NCBI GenBank assembly: GCA_048941265.1
Contig: JBHLNT010000079.1
Location: forward strand, 1-17,432
Length of the DNA: 17,432 nt
DNA from: Promethearchaeota archaeon
Lineage (GTDB): Archaea > Asgardarchaeota > Lokiarchaeia > Sigyniarchaeales > SOKP01
Reading direction: 5' to 3'
The position numbers and the translations under genes are program-made. Positions 6,354 to 15,352 of this stretch are shown here, piece after piece (position 1 is the stretch's first letter; each line of letters begins with the position of its first letter). The notes below the pieces were generated by a model. That model did no database searches. It was not told the DNA's origin and saw nothing but the letters and a program-made list of their open reading frames with translations.

Positions 6354-7829
6354 ATGAAAAAAAGATTAATATTAATAACAATAGACTGCTTGCGAAGAGA
6401 TCGCTTAAAAGTATATGGACATAGTAAAAATATTGCACCTCATCTCAATAAATTAAGTGAGGGTGCATTTATCTTTAAAAATGCAGTAACTAATGGCCCA
6501 AATACCCCCCCATCCTTTTATGCTATGTTTACTTCCGAATTTCCATTGTTATACAATAATTATGTTCCATTACCCCCTTACAAGAAAAAAATTAGTGAAA
6601 TTCTTCAAAAGAACGGTATCACTACATGTGGAATTCATTCTAATGCTCATTTAGGCAAAATCTTCAATTATCATTTAGGATTTGATGAATTTATTGATGT
6701 AGTTGCAGAACCTCAGTTTTCTTTAAGAAGAAAATTATCAAATTCATTCTATTCATTCTTAAACCTTTTTGGCATTAAAAAACGGGTAATAAATAAGATA
6801 AAAGCCAGTATAATTAAGATATTAAATTTCGAATATATGGTTAACACATCTTATAGAGCAAATAAAACAAATTCCCCATATTCTAATGCAAAAACAATCA
6901 TAACTCACGCAATCAATTGGTTAGAGAATAATTATGAATCTAATTTTTTTTTATGGATTCATATGATGGACGTCCATGGTCCATATTATCCTCCTAAAGA
7001 ATATATTCAAAAAATTTCTAATGAGAATACATTGAAATCTTATTACCAATACTTCGAGCGTATTAATAATTTCTATCGACCAGTACCAGAGAGTTATGAA
7101 AAAAAAGATGATATGCTATGTGATATAATAACCACATTGTATAATGCTGAAATATTATATTGTGATCATTATCTTGGAATTTTATTTCAATATTTAAAGA
7201 ATAGAGATATTTATGATGGCACAACTATAATAATCACATCTGATCATGGAGAGGAGTTATTTGAACGTAATTACTTAGGTCATTCTGCCTCGCTTTATGA
7301 TGAAATTTTAAGAATACCTTTTATTTTTAAACTAGATAATTCATTAAATGAACAAAAAATAATAAATGAACAAGTACAACTAATTGATCTAGCACCTACT
7401 ATTCTAGATCTTCTTAATCTACCAAAGGAACAAGATTTCATGGGTTTAAGCTTAATTCCCTTAATAAATGGGGAAATAAATTATAAGCATACTAAATATG
7501 CATTATCAGCTTCACTTCAAAATAATAAGAGGAACTATAATGGTCTTATAAAAAGAATTAACGATTTTTATCTTTTTATTTCAGTTAGAACCTTAAACTG
7601 GAAGCTAATTTATTCAGATCAAGAGAAAAAGGTTCAATTTTTCAATCTTAAGGAAGATCCGGATGAATTAGTAGATCTGAGTGAGTCTTCTAATGAAGTA
7701 GTCTTACAATCTAAAAAAAAGCTCTTTGAAAAAATAGAACCTTTTCTAAAAAGATACAATTCAGAAGATGAAAAAATTAAAAGAGCTATTGATAAGAATG
7801 CTCTAAAATACCTAATAAAGAAACAGTAA
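6354..7829 (+). CDS. Sulfatase-like hydrolase/transferase (alkaline phosphatase superfamily)
   Basis: LITIDCLRRD, NAVTNGPNTPPSF, WIHMMDVHGPY, YNAEILYCD, TSDHGE, GHSASLYDEILRIP, IDLAPTILD, FNLKEDPDE. Confidence 0.9.
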   Translation: MKKRLILITIDCLRRDRLKVYGHSKNIAPHLNKLSEGAFIFKNAVTNGPNTPPSFYAMFTSEFPLLYNNYVPLPPYKKKISEILQKNGITTCGIHSNAHLGKIFNYHLGFDEFIDVVAEPQFSLRRKLSNSFYSFLNLFGIKKRVINKIKASIIKILNFEYMVNTSYRANKTNSPYSNAKTIITHAINWLENNYESNFFLWIHMMDVHGPYYPPKEYIQKISNENTLKSYYQYFERINNFYRPVPESYEKKDDMLCDIITTLYNAEILYCDHYLGILFQYLKNRDIYDGTTIIITSDHGEELFERNYLGHSASLYDEILRIPFIFKLDNSLNEQKIINEQVQLIDLAPTILDLLNLPKEQDFMGLSLIPLINGEINYKHTKYALSASLQNNKRNYNGLIKRINDFYLFISVRTLNWKLIYSDQEKKVQFFNLKEDPDELVDLSESSNEVVLQSKKKLFEKIEPFLKRYNSEDEKIKRAIDKNALKYLIKKQ

Positions 7830-7876: not shown

Positions 7877-9127
7877 ATGAAAAATAGAAATATAATTTTA
7901 GGAATCGATGGTGTACCTTTTGAACTAATGGATAATTTATCAACAAAAGGGATAATGCCTAATTTTAATCAATTGAAAAAGAATTTCAATTTTAGAAAAT
8001 TAAGATCATCAATTCCATGTGTATCATCAGTCTCTTGGAGCTCAATAATAACAGGTAAAAATCCTGGAGAACATGGTATATATGGATTTACTGAAATTAT
8101 TAAGAATACTTACTCTTTAAGTTTCCCAAATTTTAATGCTTTAAAGAGTAAGCCATTCTGGATTGAGAATCCAGAGAAAAAACATATTATAATTAATGTT
8201 CCTTCCACTTATCCTGCAAAAGAAATGAATGGAATTCATATCGCAGGGTTCATTGCATTAGACCTTGAAAATGCAGTTTACCCTAAAAAATACGTACAAA
8301 AATTACATGAATTAGGATATGAAATAGATGTCGATACAAAAATTGCTCATCAACAGTCACCTGACCTTTTCTTTGATGAATTATTTAGGATATTAAATCT
8401 TAGGAAAAATACTTTTAATTTTTTATGGGAAGAGATAAAATGGGATACTTTTATGCCTGTCATAACAGGTAGTGATAGAATTGGACATTTTTTATGGCAT
8501 GTGTACGAAGATGATAAAAATCCACTTCATCATAGATTTTTAGAATATTTTCACGAAATAGATCAAATTATTGGAGAAATATATAATAAATTAAATGACG
8601 ATGATACCTTCATAATTTTATCTGATCATGGAATGGAAAAAATAAATTATAATGTAAATTTAAATACCTACCTGGAAAATCAAGGATTTTTAGTGCTAAC
8701 TGACCAATTTAAAAAGTACAATCGTATTAAAAAGGGTTCAAAAGCGTTTGTATTAGATTCTGGAAGAATTTATTTAAACAAGAGAGGCTATTATCCAAAT
8801 GGAACTGTAAAAGAAGAAGATGCAAAATTTTTGATAGAAGAATTAAATTCTCTCTTTATTGACTTAAAACTCAATAATAAAAAGATTATTAAAAAAGTTT
8901 ATAAAAAAAATGAGATATATAATGGAAAAATGATTAGTAATGCTCCAGATTTAATATTAGTAGAAAATAAGGGTTTTAATTTAAAAGCCGGAATTGGAAA
9001 AAAAGACGTTTTTGAAAAAGAAAAAGATTTTTCAGGAAAACATAATGAAAATTCATTCATTTTAACAAATAAAGAGATTGACATAAAAAATCCAACTGTA
9101 GAGGATGTTATAAGCTTATTGGGATGA
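7877..9127 (+). CDS. Alkaline phosphatase superfamily protein, type I phosphodiesterase/nucleotide pyrophosphatase-like
   Basis: ILGIDG, SSIPCVSSVSWSSIITGKNPGEHGIYGF, NVPSTYP, DRIGH, LSDHG, APDL, SGKH. Confidence 0.9.
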   Translation: MKNRNIILGIDGVPFELMDNLSTKGIMPNFNQLKKNFNFRKLRSSIPCVSSVSWSSIITGKNPGEHGIYGFTEIIKNTYSLSFPNFNALKSKPFWIENPEKKHIIINVPSTYPAKEMNGIHIAGFIALDLENAVYPKKYVQKLHELGYEIDVDTKIAHQQSPDLFFDELFRILNLRKNTFNFLWEEIKWDTFMPVITGSDRIGHFLWHVYEDDKNPLHHRFLEYFHEIDQIIGEIYNKLNDDDTFIILSDHGMEKINYNVNLNTYLENQGFLVLTDQFKKYNRIKKGSKAFVLDSGRIYLNKRGYYPNGTVKEEDAKFLIEELNSLFIDLKLNNKKIIKKVYKKNEIYNGKMISNAPDLILVENKGFNLKAGIGKKDVFEKEKDFSGKHNENSFILTNKEIDIKNPTVEDVISLLG

Positions 9128-9134
9128 GATTTTA

Positions 9135-10652
9135 ATGGTAAAGTTGCATAATGCTAAAAAAACATGTTGGAATTGTCCAGCAGCAAAATTGAAAGGAAAT
9201 GTGGATTTTAGAGCCTGCGGTCAGGCCAGAGATAAGGGGTTAGATTTAACCGAAGGTGAAGAAATAGTAATTGAATGCAGAAGAAGAGCGGAATTAGGTT
9301 ATTTTGAGCCGAATATTACGTTTGAGCAATGTCCTGAATGGGTGCCTAGCGATTATGGTTATATATTGAGAAATATGAAGGTGATGATTCTAGGGATTGA
9401 TGGGTACTTAGGTTGGAGTTTAGCTTTGAAATTAGCAAAATTGGGCTTTCAAGTAAGTGGACTAGATAATTTCACACGTAGAGATTGTGTTATGGAAAAG
9501 GGTGCGCACACTATTGTACCAATAGAAAGAATGACAACGAGATTACAATTAGCAAGAGAAGTTCATGGGATAACAATTAATTTTAGAAACATAAATCTTA
9601 GTGAATCAGCAAAATTGAGGGAATTTTTAGAAGAAATAAAACCAGAGTCTATTGTACATTATGCTGAAATTCCGAGTGCACCCTATAGCATGGCTGATAT
9701 GGAGCATGCTGTCAAAGTTCAAGAAAATAATGTACTTGGTACATTAAAATTATTATGGTTAATGAAAGAGATAGTTCCGGAATCAAATTTAATTAAACTA
9801 GGCACAATGGGTGAATATGGAACCCCCTTAACAGGTAGACCTCTATTTGAGGGATTATTTCCAGCAGATGCAAGTATAGAGTGGGATAACAGAAAATGGA
9901 GTTTAGGTGGTGAAACAACCCCAAGAGACCCTGCCAGTTTCTATCATGTAAGTAAAGTTCAAGATACATTTAATATTTTAGAAGCGTGTAAATATTGGTG
10001 GCTTCGATCCTATGATGTCATGCAAGGAGTTATTTTTGGAGTATTCACAGAAGAATTGGCAGTTGATAAAAGATTAAGAACACGTTTTGATATCGATGAG
10101 TGGTTTGGAACTGTAATTAACAGATTTGTTGCCCAAGCAGTTGCGGGGATTCCTTTAACTATTTATGGAAAAGGAGAACAAATAAGAGGATTTATTGCTC
10201 TAAATGATGCTATGCAATGTATGATAAGATTAATTATAACACCACCAGAACCTGGACAGTATGACGTTGTTAATCAAGTGTCTGGGCTATACAAGTTAGT
10301 TGATTTAGCAGAAAAAGTTGCACATGTAGGAAAAGTAAAATTTGGCTTAGAAACTAAACTACAAAGAATAGAAAATCCACGAGTTGAGGCAGATACCCAT
10401 CCGTTTGAGGTAGTATCCAAAAAATTACCCAGAGTTTTTGGTTTTACCCCACAAATCAAGTTAGAAGAAGAAATAGAAAGAATGTTTAAAGTATTATTAG
10501 AAGATGACATAAAGAATAGAATTGAATTGAAGCGGCATACAATATTACCTGTAACTACATGGCAGGGAGATAAACGTAATATGAGATTGTTAGAAAAATA
10601 TGATCCCGGCACTAAAGATTATAAAGGATATAAACCTATATTTGACACGTAA
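9135..10652 (+). CDS. sqdB: UDP-sulfoquinovose synthase (SqdB/SQD1/Agl3 family) with an extra N-terminal Cys-rich domain
   Basis: From M81: ILGIDGYLGW, DNFTRR, SAPYSM, NNVLGT, KLGTMGEYGTP, SFYHVSKVQD (YxxxK), QGVIFG, RFDIDEWFGTVINRF, GIPLTIYGKGEQIRGF, ENPRVE. These match SQD1/Agl3 signature segments. Confidence 0.92.
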   Translation: MVKLHNAKKTCWNCPAAKLKGNVDFRACGQARDKGLDLTEGEEIVIECRRRAELGYFEPNITFEQCPEWVPSDYGYILRNMKVMILGIDGYLGWSLALKLAKLGFQVSGLDNFTRRDCVMEKGAHTIVPIERMTTRLQLAREVHGITINFRNINLSESAKLREFLEEIKPESIVHYAEIPSAPYSMADMEHAVKVQENNVLGTLKLLWLMKEIVPESNLIKLGTMGEYGTPLTGRPLFEGLFPADASIEWDNRKWSLGGETTPRDPASFYHVSKVQDTFNILEACKYWWLRSYDVMQGVIFGVFTEELAVDKRLRTRFDIDEWFGTVINRFVAQAVAGIPLTIYGKGEQIRGFIALNDAMQCMIRLIITPPEPGQYDVVNQVSGLYKLVDLAEKVAHVGKVKFGLETKLQRIENPRVEADTHPFEVVSKKLPRVFGFTPQIKLEEEIERMFKVLLEDDIKNRIELKRHTILPVTTWQGDKRNMRLLEKYDPGTKDYKGYKPIFDT

Positions 10653-10653
10653 A

Positions 10654-10968
10654 ATGGAAATCAACGATAAAAATTTTGAACAAGAAATAATAAATTCCAA
10701 AATTCCAGTATTAATCGAATTTTGGGCTTCTTGGTGTGTCCCTTGTAAGATGATGGATTATCTCCTTAAAGATTTGGAGGAAGAATATAACGGAAAAATT
10801 ATTATCGCAAAATTAAATATAGATAGAAATAAATTAATACCAACAAAATTCAATCTTACAGGAGTGCCAACATTTATTTCATTTAAGAAAGGAAAACTTA
10901 TAGAATCGAAAGTAGGTGCATTAACAAAAGAAGATTTGATTAAAATGATTGAAAATATATTGGAATGA
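10654..10968 (+). CDS. trxA: Thioredoxin (WCVPC active site)
   Basis: MEINDKNFEQEIINSKIPVLIEFWASWCVPCK...KLNID...GVPTF. ATG 10654, 1 nt after the sqdB stop, gives a typical 104-aa thioredoxin and is preferred over the ORF-track start at 10600. Confidence 0.92.
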   Translation: MEINDKNFEQEIINSKIPVLIEFWASWCVPCKMMDYLLKDLEEEYNGKIIIAKLNIDRNKLIPTKFNLTGVPTFISFKKGKLIESKVGALTKEDLIKMIENILE

Positions 10969-11022: not shown

Positions 11023-11937
11023 TTACAATTTCTTTTCATTTATTAAAGCTCTTATACTCTTTTTTATAGATTTAATTTCATTACTTTTTTCATCTTCCAA
11101 TTTTAAATGTTGGCCAGGAATAAATCGATGTTTATCATTTTTTAATATTAACCAAGGCACTTTAACTAAATGTTTTACCCGCAAATGTGGTATATGACTA
11201 AATTTAAAGTATTCTCCCATCAAATTACCATGATCTGAAGAGATCACGACTTTTCCATTTAATTGGTCAACAAGTTTATAGATTTCATTCATAACTAATC
11301 TAAGAGTCCTTATATATGCAATCCATACTCTTCTAAGCGGGATTTTATTTTTTTTAATTACTTTCCATAAATCTAATTCACCAAGCTCAGGATTAATATA
11401 TTTAGATTCATTTCGCAAGTTATCTAAAATCTCAATAAACTCAGCATCACCGATGTATGGTCGGTGAGGTTGATTATAGTGTATCAAAATTCTTTTATTA
11501 GGATATTCCTCTACCATATTTAAGGTTGCTCTCGTAACTTCTTTGGGAGGAACAGTTCTTAATTTATTATCCCATCCATAATCCCAAACATCAATAGTTT
11601 TAAAGAATGGATTAAAACCAAATGTTTTCGCTAAGTTTAGATTTGATAGGCGAGGATTACTACTTATGCAGATTACATCATTATAATTTCCGTTAAAATT
11701 CCATTTTAACCATTCTTGTGTAGTAGAACCACCTGAAATAACATAGGGTGCATTTCTTTTTACAAACCGAGAAAAAAGATCATACCTACAGGCATCAATG
11801 ATAATAAGATAGTCCCAGTCTTGATCCATGATCCTTATAGCATTTCTTTTTGAATATTTTCTACTGAACTTACCAAAGAAGTTCAATAATTTTCGACGTA
11901 AAATCCTTCTAAGCCCCATCAGCTGTGATCTCAACAC
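11023..11937 (-). CDS. Small alkaline-phosphatase-core (sulfatase/LTA-synthase-like) protein
   Basis: DWDYLIIIDACRYD, SGGSTTQEW, IHYNQPHRPY, SSDHGNLMGE, H...VKVPW. This type is common in archaeal glycosylation clusters. GTG start; the exact start is uncertain. Confidence 0.82.
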   Translation of the reverse strand: MLRSQLMGLRRILRRKLLNFFGKFSRKYSKRNAIRIMDQDWDYLIIIDACRYDLFSRFVKRNAPYVISGGSTTQEWLKWNFNGNYNDVICISSNPRLSNLNLAKTFGFNPFFKTIDVWDYGWDNKLRTVPPKEVTRATLNMVEEYPNKRILIHYNQPHRPYIGDAEFIEILDNLRNESKYINPELGELDLWKVIKKNKIPLRRVWIAYIRTLRLVMNEIYKLVDQLNGKVVISSDHGNLMGEYFKFSHIPHLRVKHLVKVPWLILKNDKHRFIPGQHLKLEDEKSNEIKSIKKSIRALINEKKL

Positions 11938-13327: not shown

Positions 13328-15352
13328 ATGAACCTAATAAAAATTTTCAGGTTTTTCAATTTATTCAATTTAGTAAATCATTATAAACCCTATCTTTTAA
13401 ACCGATTTTTATATAGATATGACTTAAAAAAGCGGATGATTTTACTTAATTCGATAAAATCAGAATTATTTTTCGAGAAATATTTTAAGGAATCATTAAA
13501 TTATGATAAATTGAGAGAAAAATTTTTTAGTAGAAACCTTTTTGCATATTCCAATGATATTGAATATGAAGATCTAATTGAAAATCTCAATACGTACTGT
13601 TCTGATTCAATTAAAGGTTTTTTAAAGTATGCTGATGATATTTTAAATCGAACATTCAATATATACGAAAAAGACTACACATTTGATAGAAAAATAAATT
13701 GGCATTATAGTTTTTTCAATAATTACATTTGGGAATTAAAAAGATCAGATAAAATCAATATCCATCCCCAAAACAAAAATATTGATGTAAAATATGTTTG
13801 GGAATTCAACCGCCATCAGTATTTGACTTATTTAGGTTTTGCTTTTTACTTTACAAAAGATGAAAAATTCGCAATTAAATTCAAGAATCTCATTCTAAAT
13901 TGGATAAAAGAGAATCCCCCTTTATATGGAATTAATTGGATTTCCGGTCTAGAAATTTCGATTAGATTAATTTCATGGATTTTTACACTATTTTTTTTTA
14001 AGAATTCAAAAGAAATTAATAATAATGTTTTTTTTAGGAAAATTTTCAATTCAATGTTTCAGCATGCTTATTATTTGAGATACTTCTACATGCGTAGGTC
14101 ATTTAACCATACAATTGGAGATTTAACTGGTTTATACTTATTTTCCAAAATTTTTATGGATATTCGCCCGATTAAAAAATGGGAGAGATTTTCATTCAAA
14201 AAATTAATAAAACAAATTCACCTACAAGTTAGGGACGATGGCACGAATATAGAACAGTCTGTAAATTATCATAAGTTTGTACTCGAATTTTTTACTATTT
14301 TTCTTATTCTTAATTTAAATCGCTTAAATAAAAATACAATCCTATTAATTGAAAAAATGGTGGAATATCTTGTATACATAATAAAACCTAATAATTCATT
14401 ACCATTAATCGGAGATATTGATAATGGAAAAGTACTTCTATTGACTTACTATAACAATAATTCTTATATAGATTTAATTAATTTGGGATCTATCTTATTC
14501 GAAAGACAAGATTTTAAGAGCGTTTCCAAAAGTATATCTCCGATTAGCTTATTATTTTTAGGTGATAAAGGTCTTAAAATCTTTAATGCTCTTAAATACA
14601 AAGAACCTAAGGAAAAAGTTAAATATTTTGATAAAGGTGGTTTTGTTGTAATAAGAGATAATTGGAATGAGTATGCAAGTTATTTGTTTATAGATATGGG
14701 GAGATTTGGTCCCCAAAATGCTGCTCATTCTCATAGTAGCATAACTAATTTTATTTATACTTCAAAAGGTAAAGATATCATTATAGACTCTGGAACATAC
14801 ACTTACAATAAATCTTGGAATGAAAGAAATATTTTTAGAGGTAGTAAAGCACATAATGTGGTGGAGATTGATCACCAAAACCAAGCTAAAATTAATGAAT
14901 GGTTTTCTTGGAAGAAAAAACCAAAAGTTAATAGAAGAATGGATTATAAAAACAATAAAATAAAAGCAAAATGCTCTCATGACGGATATGAAGGATTTAT
15001 TGTCAAAAGAATTATTGATACTAATGAGGATTTGAGAGAAATAACAATTAGAGATGTTATATTATTAGTCCAAGATTCCCTAATTAATCAAAAACACGAT
15101 ATTAAAATATATTTTCATTTTAATGAGGAAGTTATTATAAAACAAAAAAACAACAAAATAATGATCGATGAAGATATAATTTTTGAAGTAGATGCAAGCC
15201 ATAAATATAATATTTTTATCCAAAAATCAGAATACTCTCCAAGATACGGATTTATTTGTAATAATCATACTTTAATAATCCATTTAGAAAGTTTTTTTCT
15301 AGAAACTAATAAGATCGAGGTTGAAACCAAAATAAAACTCAAAAGTCAATAA
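13328..15352 (+). CDS. Heparinase II/III-family protein (alpha-toroid plus beta-sandwich, lyase-like)
   Basis: INWH, DVKYVWEFNRHQ, WIKENPPLYGINW, NH, DGTNIEQSVNYH, PLIGDIDNG, AHSH, DSGTYTYN, FRGSKAHN, HDGY. Confidence 0.9.
   Translation: MNLIKIFRFFNLFNLVNHYKPYLLNRFLYRYDLKKRMILLNSIKSELFFEKYFKESLNYDKLREKFFSRNLFAYSNDIEYEDLIENLNTYCSDSIKGFLKYADDILNRTFNIYEKDYTFDRKINWHYSFFNNYIWELKRSDKINIHPQNKNIDVKYVWEFNRHQYLTYLGFAFYFTKDEKFAIKFKNLILNWIKENPPLYGINWISGLEISIRLISWIFTLFFFKNSKEINNNVFFRKIFNSMFQHAYYLRYFYMRRSFNHTIGDLTGLYLFSKIFMDIRPIKKWERFSFKKLIKQIHLQVRDDGTNIEQSVNYHKFVLEFFTIFLILNLNRLNKNTILLIEKMVEYLVYIIKPNNSLPLIGDIDNGKVLLLTYYNNNSYIDLINLGSILFERQDFKSVSKSISPISLLFLGDKGLKIFNALKYKEPKEKVKYFDKGGFVVIRDNWNEYASYLFIDMGRFGPQNAAHSHSSITNFIYTSKGKDIIIDSGTYTYNKSWNERNIFRGSKAHNVVEIDHQNQAKINEWFSWKKKPKVNRRMDYKNNKIKAKCSHDGYEGFIVKRIIDTNEDLREITIRDVILLVQDSLINQKHDIKIYFHFNEEVIIKQKNNKIMIDEDIIFEVDASHKYNIFIQKSEYSPRYGFICNNHTLIIHLESFFLETNKIEVETKIKLKSQ

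Follow-up and report, generated by a model that had tools for sequence, protein, structure and literature searches.

The window, by which we mean the whole stretch of 17,432 nucleotides analysed here, carries a gene for a UDP-sulfoquinovose synthase of the SQD1/SqdB type with an additional N-terminal domain, flanked by genes for an NPP-like enzyme and a thioredoxin (Table 1). The three genes are packed tightly. The TGA stop of the NPP-like gene occupies positions 9125–9127 and the sqdB ATG follows 7 nt later, and the thioredoxin ATG lies 1 nt past the sqdB stop, its position having been set from an alignment of 43 sequences. The stretch is present in five DNA sequencing runs from two studies of sediment metagenomes; no RNA run was found among the listed sequencing runs that contain it.

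Table 1. Features of the fused sqdB gene and its two neighbours.
Feature	Position	Strand	Remarks
NPP-like alkaline-phosphatase-superfamily gene	7877..9127	+	416 aa; PF01663 match
Fused five-Cys SqdB open reading frame	9135..10652	+	505 aa
N-terminal five-cysteine domain, residues 1–80	9135..9374	+	five-Cys pattern; no Pfam/NCBIfam match
SQD1/SqdB-type extended-SDR catalytic body, residues 81–477	9375..10565	+	NF041015 and PDB 1i24 alignments
Clade-specific C-terminal tail, residues 478–505, and TAA stop	10566..10652	+	past the ends of the NF041015 and SQD1 alignments
Dedicated thioredoxin	10654..10968	+	104 aa; WCVPC active site; PF00085, TIGR01068

UDP-sulfoquinovose synthase converts UDP-glucose and sulfite to UDP-sulfoquinovose. 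Residues 81–477 of the fused protein span all of the family model NF041015 (positions 1–384 of 384, E 1.2e-121) with 406.3 bits, short of the 575 bits required of an equivalog. The model finds matches in 7 of 151 Asgard genomes, all under the cut-off, and the Sulfolobus acidocaldarius control also matches only under it. This indicates that the cut-off is narrower than the functional family. Judged by its sequence, the protein is filed as SQD1-like and not as a strict NF041015 equivalog. The SQD1 structure 1i24 matches residues 80–477 at E 1e-77. The segments GIDGYLG, KLGTMGEYG and FYHVSK align with the equivalent SQD1 motifs and are invariant in 79 homologues; the NAD-binding GxxGxxG, the catalytic Thr in GTMGEYG and the Tyr-His-x-x-Lys presumably have the roles assigned to them in work on SQD1.

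The body aligns end to end with the model of the family to which plant SQD1 (PDB 1qrr, 1i24), bacterial SqdB and Sulfolobus Agl3 belong, and with SQD1 itself, and it keeps the motifs. The fused protein differs from them by its 80-residue five-Cys head, by a 28-residue tail and by its place in a fixed gene cassette. Both the NF041015 model and the sequence of the SQD1 crystal structure begin at residue 80–82, in line with the first-pass annotation, which had stated that characterised SqdB and Agl3 start essentially at the Rossmann strand. To our knowledge, the characterised aerobic SQD1, SqdB and Agl3 all lack the five-Cys domain. Three SqdB-like genes of Asgard archaea without the domain encode proteins that are just 32–37% identical to the fused SqdB. 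In the tail, G478, K480, E487, Y489, P491 and G492 are each at least 90% conserved among the 79 homologues.

Translation of the reading frame confirmed the earlier reading of 80 in-frame residues with five cysteines ahead of the Rossmann start, which opens at M81 with MKVMILGIDGYLG. The cysteines are C11, C14, C28, C48 and C66 (spacings x2, x13, x19 and x17; codons 9165–9167, 9174–9176, 9216–9218, 9276–9278 and 9330–9332), the last of them within the motif C66-P-E-W69. This is a high density, 5 of 80 residues vs. 48 of 5252 (0.91%) in the other proteins of the window, with a binomial P of about 9e-4. All five are kept in 120 of the 120 homologues among the matches listed, and the pattern recurs in all 80 genome loci examined (71 by ORF calling and 9 by direct translation); some of the counts given here take in two unpublished genomes (G019 and G021). 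A score was computed for 325 candidate proteins, and 305 of them match residues 1–85 at E ≤ 0.01. The domain comes close to the catalytic body in its degree of conservation, the column mean being 0.74 for residues 1–80 and 0.81 for residues 81–477 in 108 full-length homologues, and its identity across archaeal and bacterial phyla is 60–86%. Besides the five cysteines, 15 further positions of the domain are invariant in 79 sequences, including W12, N13, P15, D24, F25, Q30, E47, R50 and W69. C48 lies in the invariant strand I-E-C-x-R-R-P-E-L-G, whose Arg residues after the Cys are invariant or near-invariant in these sequences. C28 is missing in three divergent homologues, each of which has a new Cys at position 9, a pattern that suggests a ligand swap; one homologue has both.

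It could be argued that M81 is the true start and that residues 1–80 are never made, since this Met shows a conservation of at least 90% and marks the point where the family model sets in. The conservation of the extension at the protein level, in the 120 listed proteins and the 80 loci from archaeal and bacterial phyla alike, would be lost in untranslated DNA and leaves this explanation a negligible probability. No close homologue starts at M81; short matches of high identity are contig-end fragments that continue into the Rossmann strand. A search for short forms gave 43 matches, of which the six inspected turned out to be contig-end fragments of the fused gene and so do not demonstrate a split gene. 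Residues 1–80 form a genuine accessory domain that is translated as part of an SQD1-type UDP-sulfoquinovose synthase; the first-pass annotation had held the extension to be probably translated. Among the two matches longer than 884 aa, both intein-bearing, no fusion of SqdB to NPP or thioredoxin was found, which is weak evidence.

The architecture had been called unrecognised, and it stays so: no curated family covers the extension, and no description of it was found in the full-text literature searched. The domain has no match to sequence families of Pfam, NCBIfam or PDB. With 14 domain sequences, Pfam at E ≤ 10 returned just two single-member chance matches and no HiPIP (PF01355). The best results of a PDB profile search, an Spt4 zinc finger (E 0.3) and a methane monooxygenase component (E 0.43), are not significant, and neither this search nor Pfam gave a sequence-level match to an Fe-S family. 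An AF2 model of the domain has pLDDT of 82; residues 51–80 pack confidently on the catalytic body (pLDDT 83–95), and an inserted acidic loop is modelled with low confidence. Foldseek against PDB found no match to the model at E ≤ 0.001. In a VIA fold comparison with 48,161 PDB representatives, only four chains appeared at Z ≥ 2, all of them weak (Z 2.0–2.8 over 40–42 residues) and all HiPIP-type small proteins or subunits: the HiPIPs 1isu and 1hpi together with one small subunit each of 4-hydroxyphenylacetate decarboxylase (2y8n_B) and (1-methylalkyl)succinate synthase (9o8u_F). We take all four to bind [4Fe-4S]. In the ESM Atlas the best cluster for the domain scored 0.87; it is unnamed and serves as a lead only.

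HiPIPs carry the motifs CxNC and CxxW. These resemble C11-W-N-C14 and C66-P-E-W69 of the domain, which is also similar in size and in its CxxC...C...C layout to HiPIP and to the small HiPIP-like subunits found in two kinds of glycyl-radical enzyme, 4-hydroxyphenylacetate decarboxylase and the X-succinate synthases. It differs from them by a fifth invariant Cys, by the acidic insertion and by the lack of any sequence match. The catalytic subunit of ferredoxin:thioredoxin reductase is a small Cys-rich [4Fe-4S] protein that trades electrons with a thioredoxin and is marked by CPC and CHC motifs. Both motifs are missing from the five-Cys domain, and no match in fold or sequence was found.

The five-Cys SqdB, the NPP-like enzyme and the thioredoxin were shown to be inherited as one three-gene unit, in the fixed order NPP-like gene, sqdB, thioredoxin gene. 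A homologue of the NPP-like gene is present in 71 of 80 loci, directly upstream and on the same strand in 69; of the nine loci without it, five have no upstream DNA at all and four do. Its product matches PF01663 with 145.8 bits (cut-off 23; profile positions 2–339 of 342), and no relative of it was found among PDB sequences at E ≤ 0.001. The thioredoxin has 97.4 bits for PF00085 and 99.7 bits for TIGR01068, the latter over its cut-off of 96.8. A homologue follows sqdB within 460 nt in 77 of 80 loci. Its active site is WC[TPLVIA][APV]C in 78 of 78 cases and never the canonical WCGPC (0/78). Neither partner gene was found near the three domain-less Asgard SqdB-like loci (0/3). For a complex of the full-length SqdB with the thioredoxin, structure prediction without controls gave scores of 0.19 and 0.03, the mark being 0.32.

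The fused form matches 228 stretches from archaea and bacteria among contigs representing one genome per species. As inferred from the record titles, all named hosts belong to anaerobe-type archaeal or bacterial lineages. The cassette is often found within glycan clusters together with a GT2 gene, a second SDR gene, a flippase-like gene and methyltransferase genes. Most likely the enzyme product enters surface glycans by way of the GT2 whose gene often comes next.

Sulfate activation is a recurrent neighbour of the cassette. ATP sulfurylase genes lie within 6 kb in 13 of 80 loci (CysD with CysN in 8; Sat, alone or with CysC, in 5). Sat or CysD is over the cut-off in 47 of 50 cassette genomes, CysH in none of the 50. 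Sat also turns up in 69 of the 146 genomes that lack the five-Cys domain, so its genome-wide co-occurrence with the cassette is nonspecific. Eight small genomes have CysD and lack Sat, CysH and any convincing APS kinase (best score at most 30 bits). The absence of CysH was considered as cassette-specific support and dropped, since 140 of the 151 sampled Asgard genomes lack it anyway. The source genome itself encodes a canonical APS reductase (NF002537, 288 bits against a cut-off of 154; CC..CxxC..ECGLH motifs) on a 3-kb contig. It is an outlier, as 0 of 25 family members have one, and its possession means that this genome does not need a private route to sulfite.

We favour, with a probability of about 40%, the reading that the five-Cys head is a metal/redox module that works with the thioredoxin and supplies sulfite equivalents to SqdB. 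The domain would form a small HiPIP-like metal site, likeliest a [4Fe-4S] cluster. By analogy of motifs, the ligands would be C11, C14, C28 and C66, which leaves C48 as a candidate reactive thiol. The thioredoxin would be the two-electron or thiol-exchange partner of the head. C48 could then hold and release a sulfite equivalent, as an intermediate of the S-sulfocysteine type, beside the SDR active site, where it would add to UDP-4-keto-glucose-5,6-ene. The donor is unsettled; the likeliest ultimate sulfur source would be APS made by ATP sulfurylase and handled by the NPP-like enzyme. As for the earlier proposal of a metal-binding or thiol/redox domain, the thiol-redox part is favoured by the dedicated thioredoxin, and what speaks for the Fe-S part is the set of weak HiPIP-type structural neighbours.

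A bolder version, which we regard as tentative and distinctly less probable than the general reading, makes the NPP-like enzyme, the [4Fe-4S]-bearing head and the thioredoxin into a sulfonucleotide reductase that is attached to SqdB and independent of CysH. APS from the neighbouring ATP sulfurylase would be turned into enzyme-bound S-sulfocysteine and then into sulfite within the synthase. As the thioredoxin would free sulfite inside the synthase, free sulfite would never appear. The arrangement would recall assimilatory APS/PAPS reductase (CysH), with a putative Fe-S cluster, one reactive Cys and a sulfite-releasing thioredoxin. No enzyme of the alkaline-phosphatase superfamily is known to us to act in sulfonucleotide reduction, which counts against the general reading too. 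A chemical precedent that favours the general reading as well is CysH, in which sulfite is released from a Cys thiosulfonate. CysH is described as thioredoxin-dependent (PMC1175818). No cassette protein matches CysH or PF01507, the PAPS_reduct ATP-pyrophosphatase fold, so the cassette could act like CysH by analogy alone, and the likeness is proposed as one of mechanism, not of homology.

Two explanations without sulfur transfer are each about half as probable as the favoured reading. The head could be a redox switch, i.e., a disulfide or Fe-S sensor gating an ordinary sulfite-using SqdB, which the thioredoxin reduces, so that the synthase would work in a reducing environment only; a separate task in the glycan pathway would fall to the NPP-like enzyme. 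The strict coupling of the thioredoxin, the CxxC pair with three further invariant Cys, the source genome's own APS reductase as a provider of sulfite and the location of the cassette in glycan clusters all agree with a switch. It leaves unexplained the equally tight NPP-like gene and the ATP sulfurylase genes nearby. Moreover, housekeeping thioredoxins are present in every cell, so regulation alone fails to explain why archaea and bacteria alike keep an atypical thioredoxin dedicated to the cassette. The other explanation, to which we give the same low standing, is a structural zinc held by four Cys that stabilises the fold or the oligomer, with no redox or sulfur chemistry and with a thioredoxin that serves another enzyme. 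A CxxC with distant Cys is a common zinc pattern, the best PDB sequence match is the (non-significant) Spt4 zinc finger, and the model sets the second half of the domain against the body with high confidence. However, the invariant cysteines number five, not four, and invariant charged and aromatic positions such as E47, R50, D24 and Q30 have no place in this explanation. The anaerobe-type hosts, set against the characterised aerobic enzymes, which are not known to carry the domain, and the structural neighbours, all of them HiPIP-type chains and presumably Fe-S-binding, also argue against it.

Thiosulfate is common in sediment-type habitats, which include the source of this stretch. C48 in its basic loop could attack thiosulfate in a rhodanese-like manner, sulfite passing to the SqdB site and the thioredoxin turning the persulfide to H2S. 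An invariant Cys followed by invariant or near-invariant Arg residues (E-C-x-R-R) and the tight thioredoxin coupling would fit such a splitting reaction. Neither the rhodanese family nor its fold was detected for the domain in Pfam or in the PDB fold comparison, and the NPP-like gene and the ATP sulfurylase neighbours would be without a role. We consider this route improbable, more so than the switch or the zinc site.

The supply of sulfite to UDP-sulfoquinovose synthases is poorly resolved, above all in anaerobes without assimilatory sulfite formation. A widespread form of SqdB, extended by a so far undescribed Cys domain and accompanied by two constant partner genes, offers a concrete three-protein system, which could bring to light a novel relay, of Fe-S or thiol type, that delivers sulfite. 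From the cassette one would also expect glycans that bear sulfoquinovose in Asgard, DPANN, Bathyarchaeia and CPR organisms, for which no report was found in the literature searched. The use of the head may extend beyond this enzyme. One stand-alone homologue of the domain lies between methyltransferase genes and a B12-radical-SAM gene, with no SqdB, thioredoxin or NPP gene beside it, which suggests that the five-Cys module may be generic.

The UDP-sulfoquinovose synthase (SqdB) ORF of the window begins with an undescribed, strongly conserved cysteine domain (residues 1–80, the head). The first-pass annotation had placed five cysteines here, at positions 11, 14, 28, 48 and 66, and translation of the ORF reproduces that spacing exactly; C66-P-E-W69 closes the series, and the Rossmann strand, MKVMILGIDGYLG, begins at M81. 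This amounts to 5 Cys in 80 residues versus 0.91% Cys in the other proteins of the window (P ~9e-4). As had also been claimed, the sqdB ATG lies 7 nt past the TGA of the upstream gene. The thioredoxin ATG at 10654 follows the sqdB TAA by 1 nt. Conservation is 90% or more at both M81 (window 9375–9377) and M84; M81 could be an internal start that yields a head-less isoform, or else a relic of the ancestral start codon.

Features and their coordinates (window positions unless a locus is named)
Feature	Position	Strand	Remark
Sulfatase-family gene	6354–7829		directly upstream of the NPP-like gene
Head-bearing SqdB ORF	9135–10652	+	505 residues
Clade-specific C-terminal tail	10566–10649	+	residues 478–505; past the SQD1 and NF041015 alignment ends
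304-aa ORF	11023–11937		glycan island
Heparinase II/III-like gene	13328–15352		glycan island
APS reductase, canonical Fe-S type	contig C313, L083:901–1614		CC..CxxC..ECGLH motifs
Divergent PAPS-reductase-family protein	L045:2536–3372		~280 aa; Saccharibacteria, adjoining the cassette
Divergent PAPS-reductase-family protein	L015:6371–7213		~280 aa; Hydrothermarchaeales, adjoining the cassette
PAPS-using module	L019:995–4378		Aenigmatarchaeota, directly upstream of the cassette
Stand-alone head homologue P0147	L094:6980–7252		83 aa; also on L093

A word-indexed search with residues 1–85 gave 325 scored candidates, 305 of them (277–884 aa) at E ≤ 0.01. Conservation of the cysteines had been proposed as a check, and the five-Cys pattern is present in 120 of the 120 proteins listed among these 305. 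Invariant in a 79-sequence alignment are N6, C11, W12, N13, C14, P15, G21, D24, F25, C28, G29, Q30, E47, C48, R50, P59, F63, C66, W69 and L78. Mean column conservation in 108 full-length homologues is 0.74 for the head vs. 0.81 for the body (residues 81–477). When one genome per species was scanned, 228 stretches proved to encode a relative, and the head is present in all 80 loci kept. By record title, 62 of these are archaeal (Asgard, Thermoplasmatota, Bathyarchaeia, several DPANN lineages, Hadarchaeota, Theionarchaea, Altiarchaeales, Hydrothermarchaeales) and 18 bacterial (Armatimonadota, Chloroflexota, Patescibacteria, Planctomycetota, Fibrobacterota, Lentisphaerae, Thermodesulfobacteriota, Acetothermia and others); judging by their names, these lineages would be of anaerobe type. 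Within the window's phylum the head is sporadic (5/151 sampled genomes, the window genome counted). A literature search of article full texts gave no account of the head or its gene cassette, in keeping with the claim of an undescribed architecture; matching passages of one article mention sulfoquinovose solely for Sulfolobus controls (PMC11284389).

The body is predicted to function like SqdB, because the full NCBIfam model for UDP-sulfoquinovose synthase (NF041015, 1–384) aligns to residues 81–477 with 406 bits, and Arabidopsis SQD1 (1i24) is the best solved relative (E 1e-77, residues 80–477). GTMGEYG and FYHxSK, whose residues have catalytic roles known from SQD1 work, are aligned. The only Pfam matches of the ORF are SDR epimerase families, starting at residue 83. 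The score stays under the equivalog cut-off of 575 bits, as does that of the genome of Sulfolobus acidocaldarius, a species with a characterised Agl3.

The head itself has no match among Pfam and NCBIfam models, nothing significant in a profile search of the PDB and no named neighbour in the ESM Atlas. When 1.84 billion cluster representatives were searched exhaustively with HMMER, only 42 proteins reached E ≤ 0.001: fused SqdB forms and fragments, together with a dozen divergent stand-alones (68–108 aa) and a few repetitive Cys-rich proteins. C28 is missing from three divergent members, which carry a new Cys at position 9 instead, and one member has both; this exchange is the pattern expected of a swapped metal ligand. 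AlphaFold gives a fair model of the domain alone (pLDDT 82); in the full-length model residues 51–80 reach 83–95, with low values in the acidic loop 22–42. Foldseek found nothing with the head model. Of the 48,161 chains compared in a full VIA scan, only four reached Z ≥ 2: two HiPIPs and two glycyl-radical-enzyme small subunits, the latter being HiPIP-like and [4Fe-4S]-binding. Their Z of 2.0–2.8 is weak, and the argument for a HiPIP-type fold is that all four are of one kind. HiPIPs carry CxNC and CxxW motifs, which resemble C11-W-N-C14 and C66-P-E-W69 of the head. On account of this likeness, the cluster ligands would be C11, C14, C28 and C66, leaving C48 (in I-E-C-x-R-R-P-E-L-G) free. A metal (Fe-S) and thiol module is the most likely identity of the head, which would act together with an NPP-like enzyme and a thioredoxin dedicated to it.

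These partners form a cassette with head-bearing SqdB. In a tblastn search of the window proteins against the 80 loci, the thioredoxin lies at most 460 nt downstream in 77; in two others (L055, L063) the DNA stops at or inside the gene, and L024 has no thioredoxin match in its 381 nt of downstream DNA. The NPP-like gene occurs in 71 loci, directly upstream on the same strand in 69; of the nine loci without it, five have no upstream DNA and four do. With the two loci of unpublished genomes (L025, L029) left out, the thioredoxin is present in 75/78 loci and the NPP-like gene in 69/78. In 78/78 thioredoxin sequences the active site reads WC[TPLVIA][APV]C, and in none WCGPC; W24, S26, W27, C28, C31 and P72 of this protein are invariant. 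Three domain-less SqdB-like genes of the same phylum are 32–37% identical to the window body, and no NPP-like or thioredoxin gene lies near them. The head module is not exclusive to SqdB, since the stand-alone P0147, traced to two metagenome contigs, has no SqdB, thioredoxin or NPP-like gene within 4–7 kb on either side; its neighbours are two flanking SAM methyltransferases, GT2s and a B12-binding radical SAM gene.

Clustering of all flanking ORFs revealed a small GT2, which is present in 41 loci and in most cases immediately follows the thioredoxin, as well as a second SDR, flippase-like genes, methyltransferases, a TrmB regulator and sugar-1-phosphate nucleotidyltransferases. Given these partners, the cassette most likely feeds glycan synthesis. 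In the window it sits within a glycan island, which also holds GT2 and GT4 genes, an FkbM methyltransferase and a 304-aa ORF with no family match. The sulfatase neighbour is retained in only 3/80 loci.

The window genome (5.0 Mb, 91% complete, 4.8% contamination) has two paralogous Sat-CysC clusters (contigs C223 and C333; loci L081, L082, L095, L096) in the order Sat, unknown gene, APS kinase, the 461-aa unknown gene being seen on C223 only; with these clusters it would make PAPS as well as APS. Its APS reductase, on a 3-kb contig whose GC content fits the genome, makes canonical sulfite formation possible; none was found in 25 same-family or two same-genus genomes. The window genome yielded no NIR_SIR sulfite reductase, and its sulfite apparently serves biosynthesis rather than assimilation.

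Within 6 kb of the cassette, CysD with a CysN-like GTPase occurs in eight loci (six without L025 and L029), Sat with or without CysC in five, and a divergent PAPS-reductase-family protein, under every CysD and CysH cut-off, in two. At L019, the sulfoquinovose module adjoins a PAPS-using one made up of a sulfotransferase, APS kinase, DHH-family phosphoesterase and Sat. Among 50 cassette genomes, including the unpublished G019 and G021, Sat is over cut-off in 38, CysD in 10, either in 47 and CysH in none. Sat and CysH are absent from eight small CysD genomes, which also lack a convincing APS kinase; APS in these genomes is without another known consumer, MAG incompleteness being a caveat. Six of them carry the CysD-CysN pair within 6 kb of the cassette. 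Phylum-wide controls weaken the genome-wide co-occurrence argument: Sat is found in 74/151 genomes (5/5 head carriers and 69/146 others) and CysH over cut-off in only 11/151, so Sat without CysH is common there, cassette or not.

Several positions of the C-terminal tail are at least 90% conserved, and it is modelled confidently (pLDDT 84–92). Residues 226–241 and 260–287 (window 9810–9995) have very low AlphaFold confidence despite many invariant residues (G234, R235, E239, W250, W255, S256, G259, E260 and R264 are listed), and they include insertions relative to SQD1. Eight fused homologues are 838–1009 aa long (P0049, P0059, P0062, P0065, P0067, P0078, P0165, P0166); LAGLIDADG or intein Pfam domains in six of them indicate that inteins repeatedly invaded the head-bearing SqdB clade.
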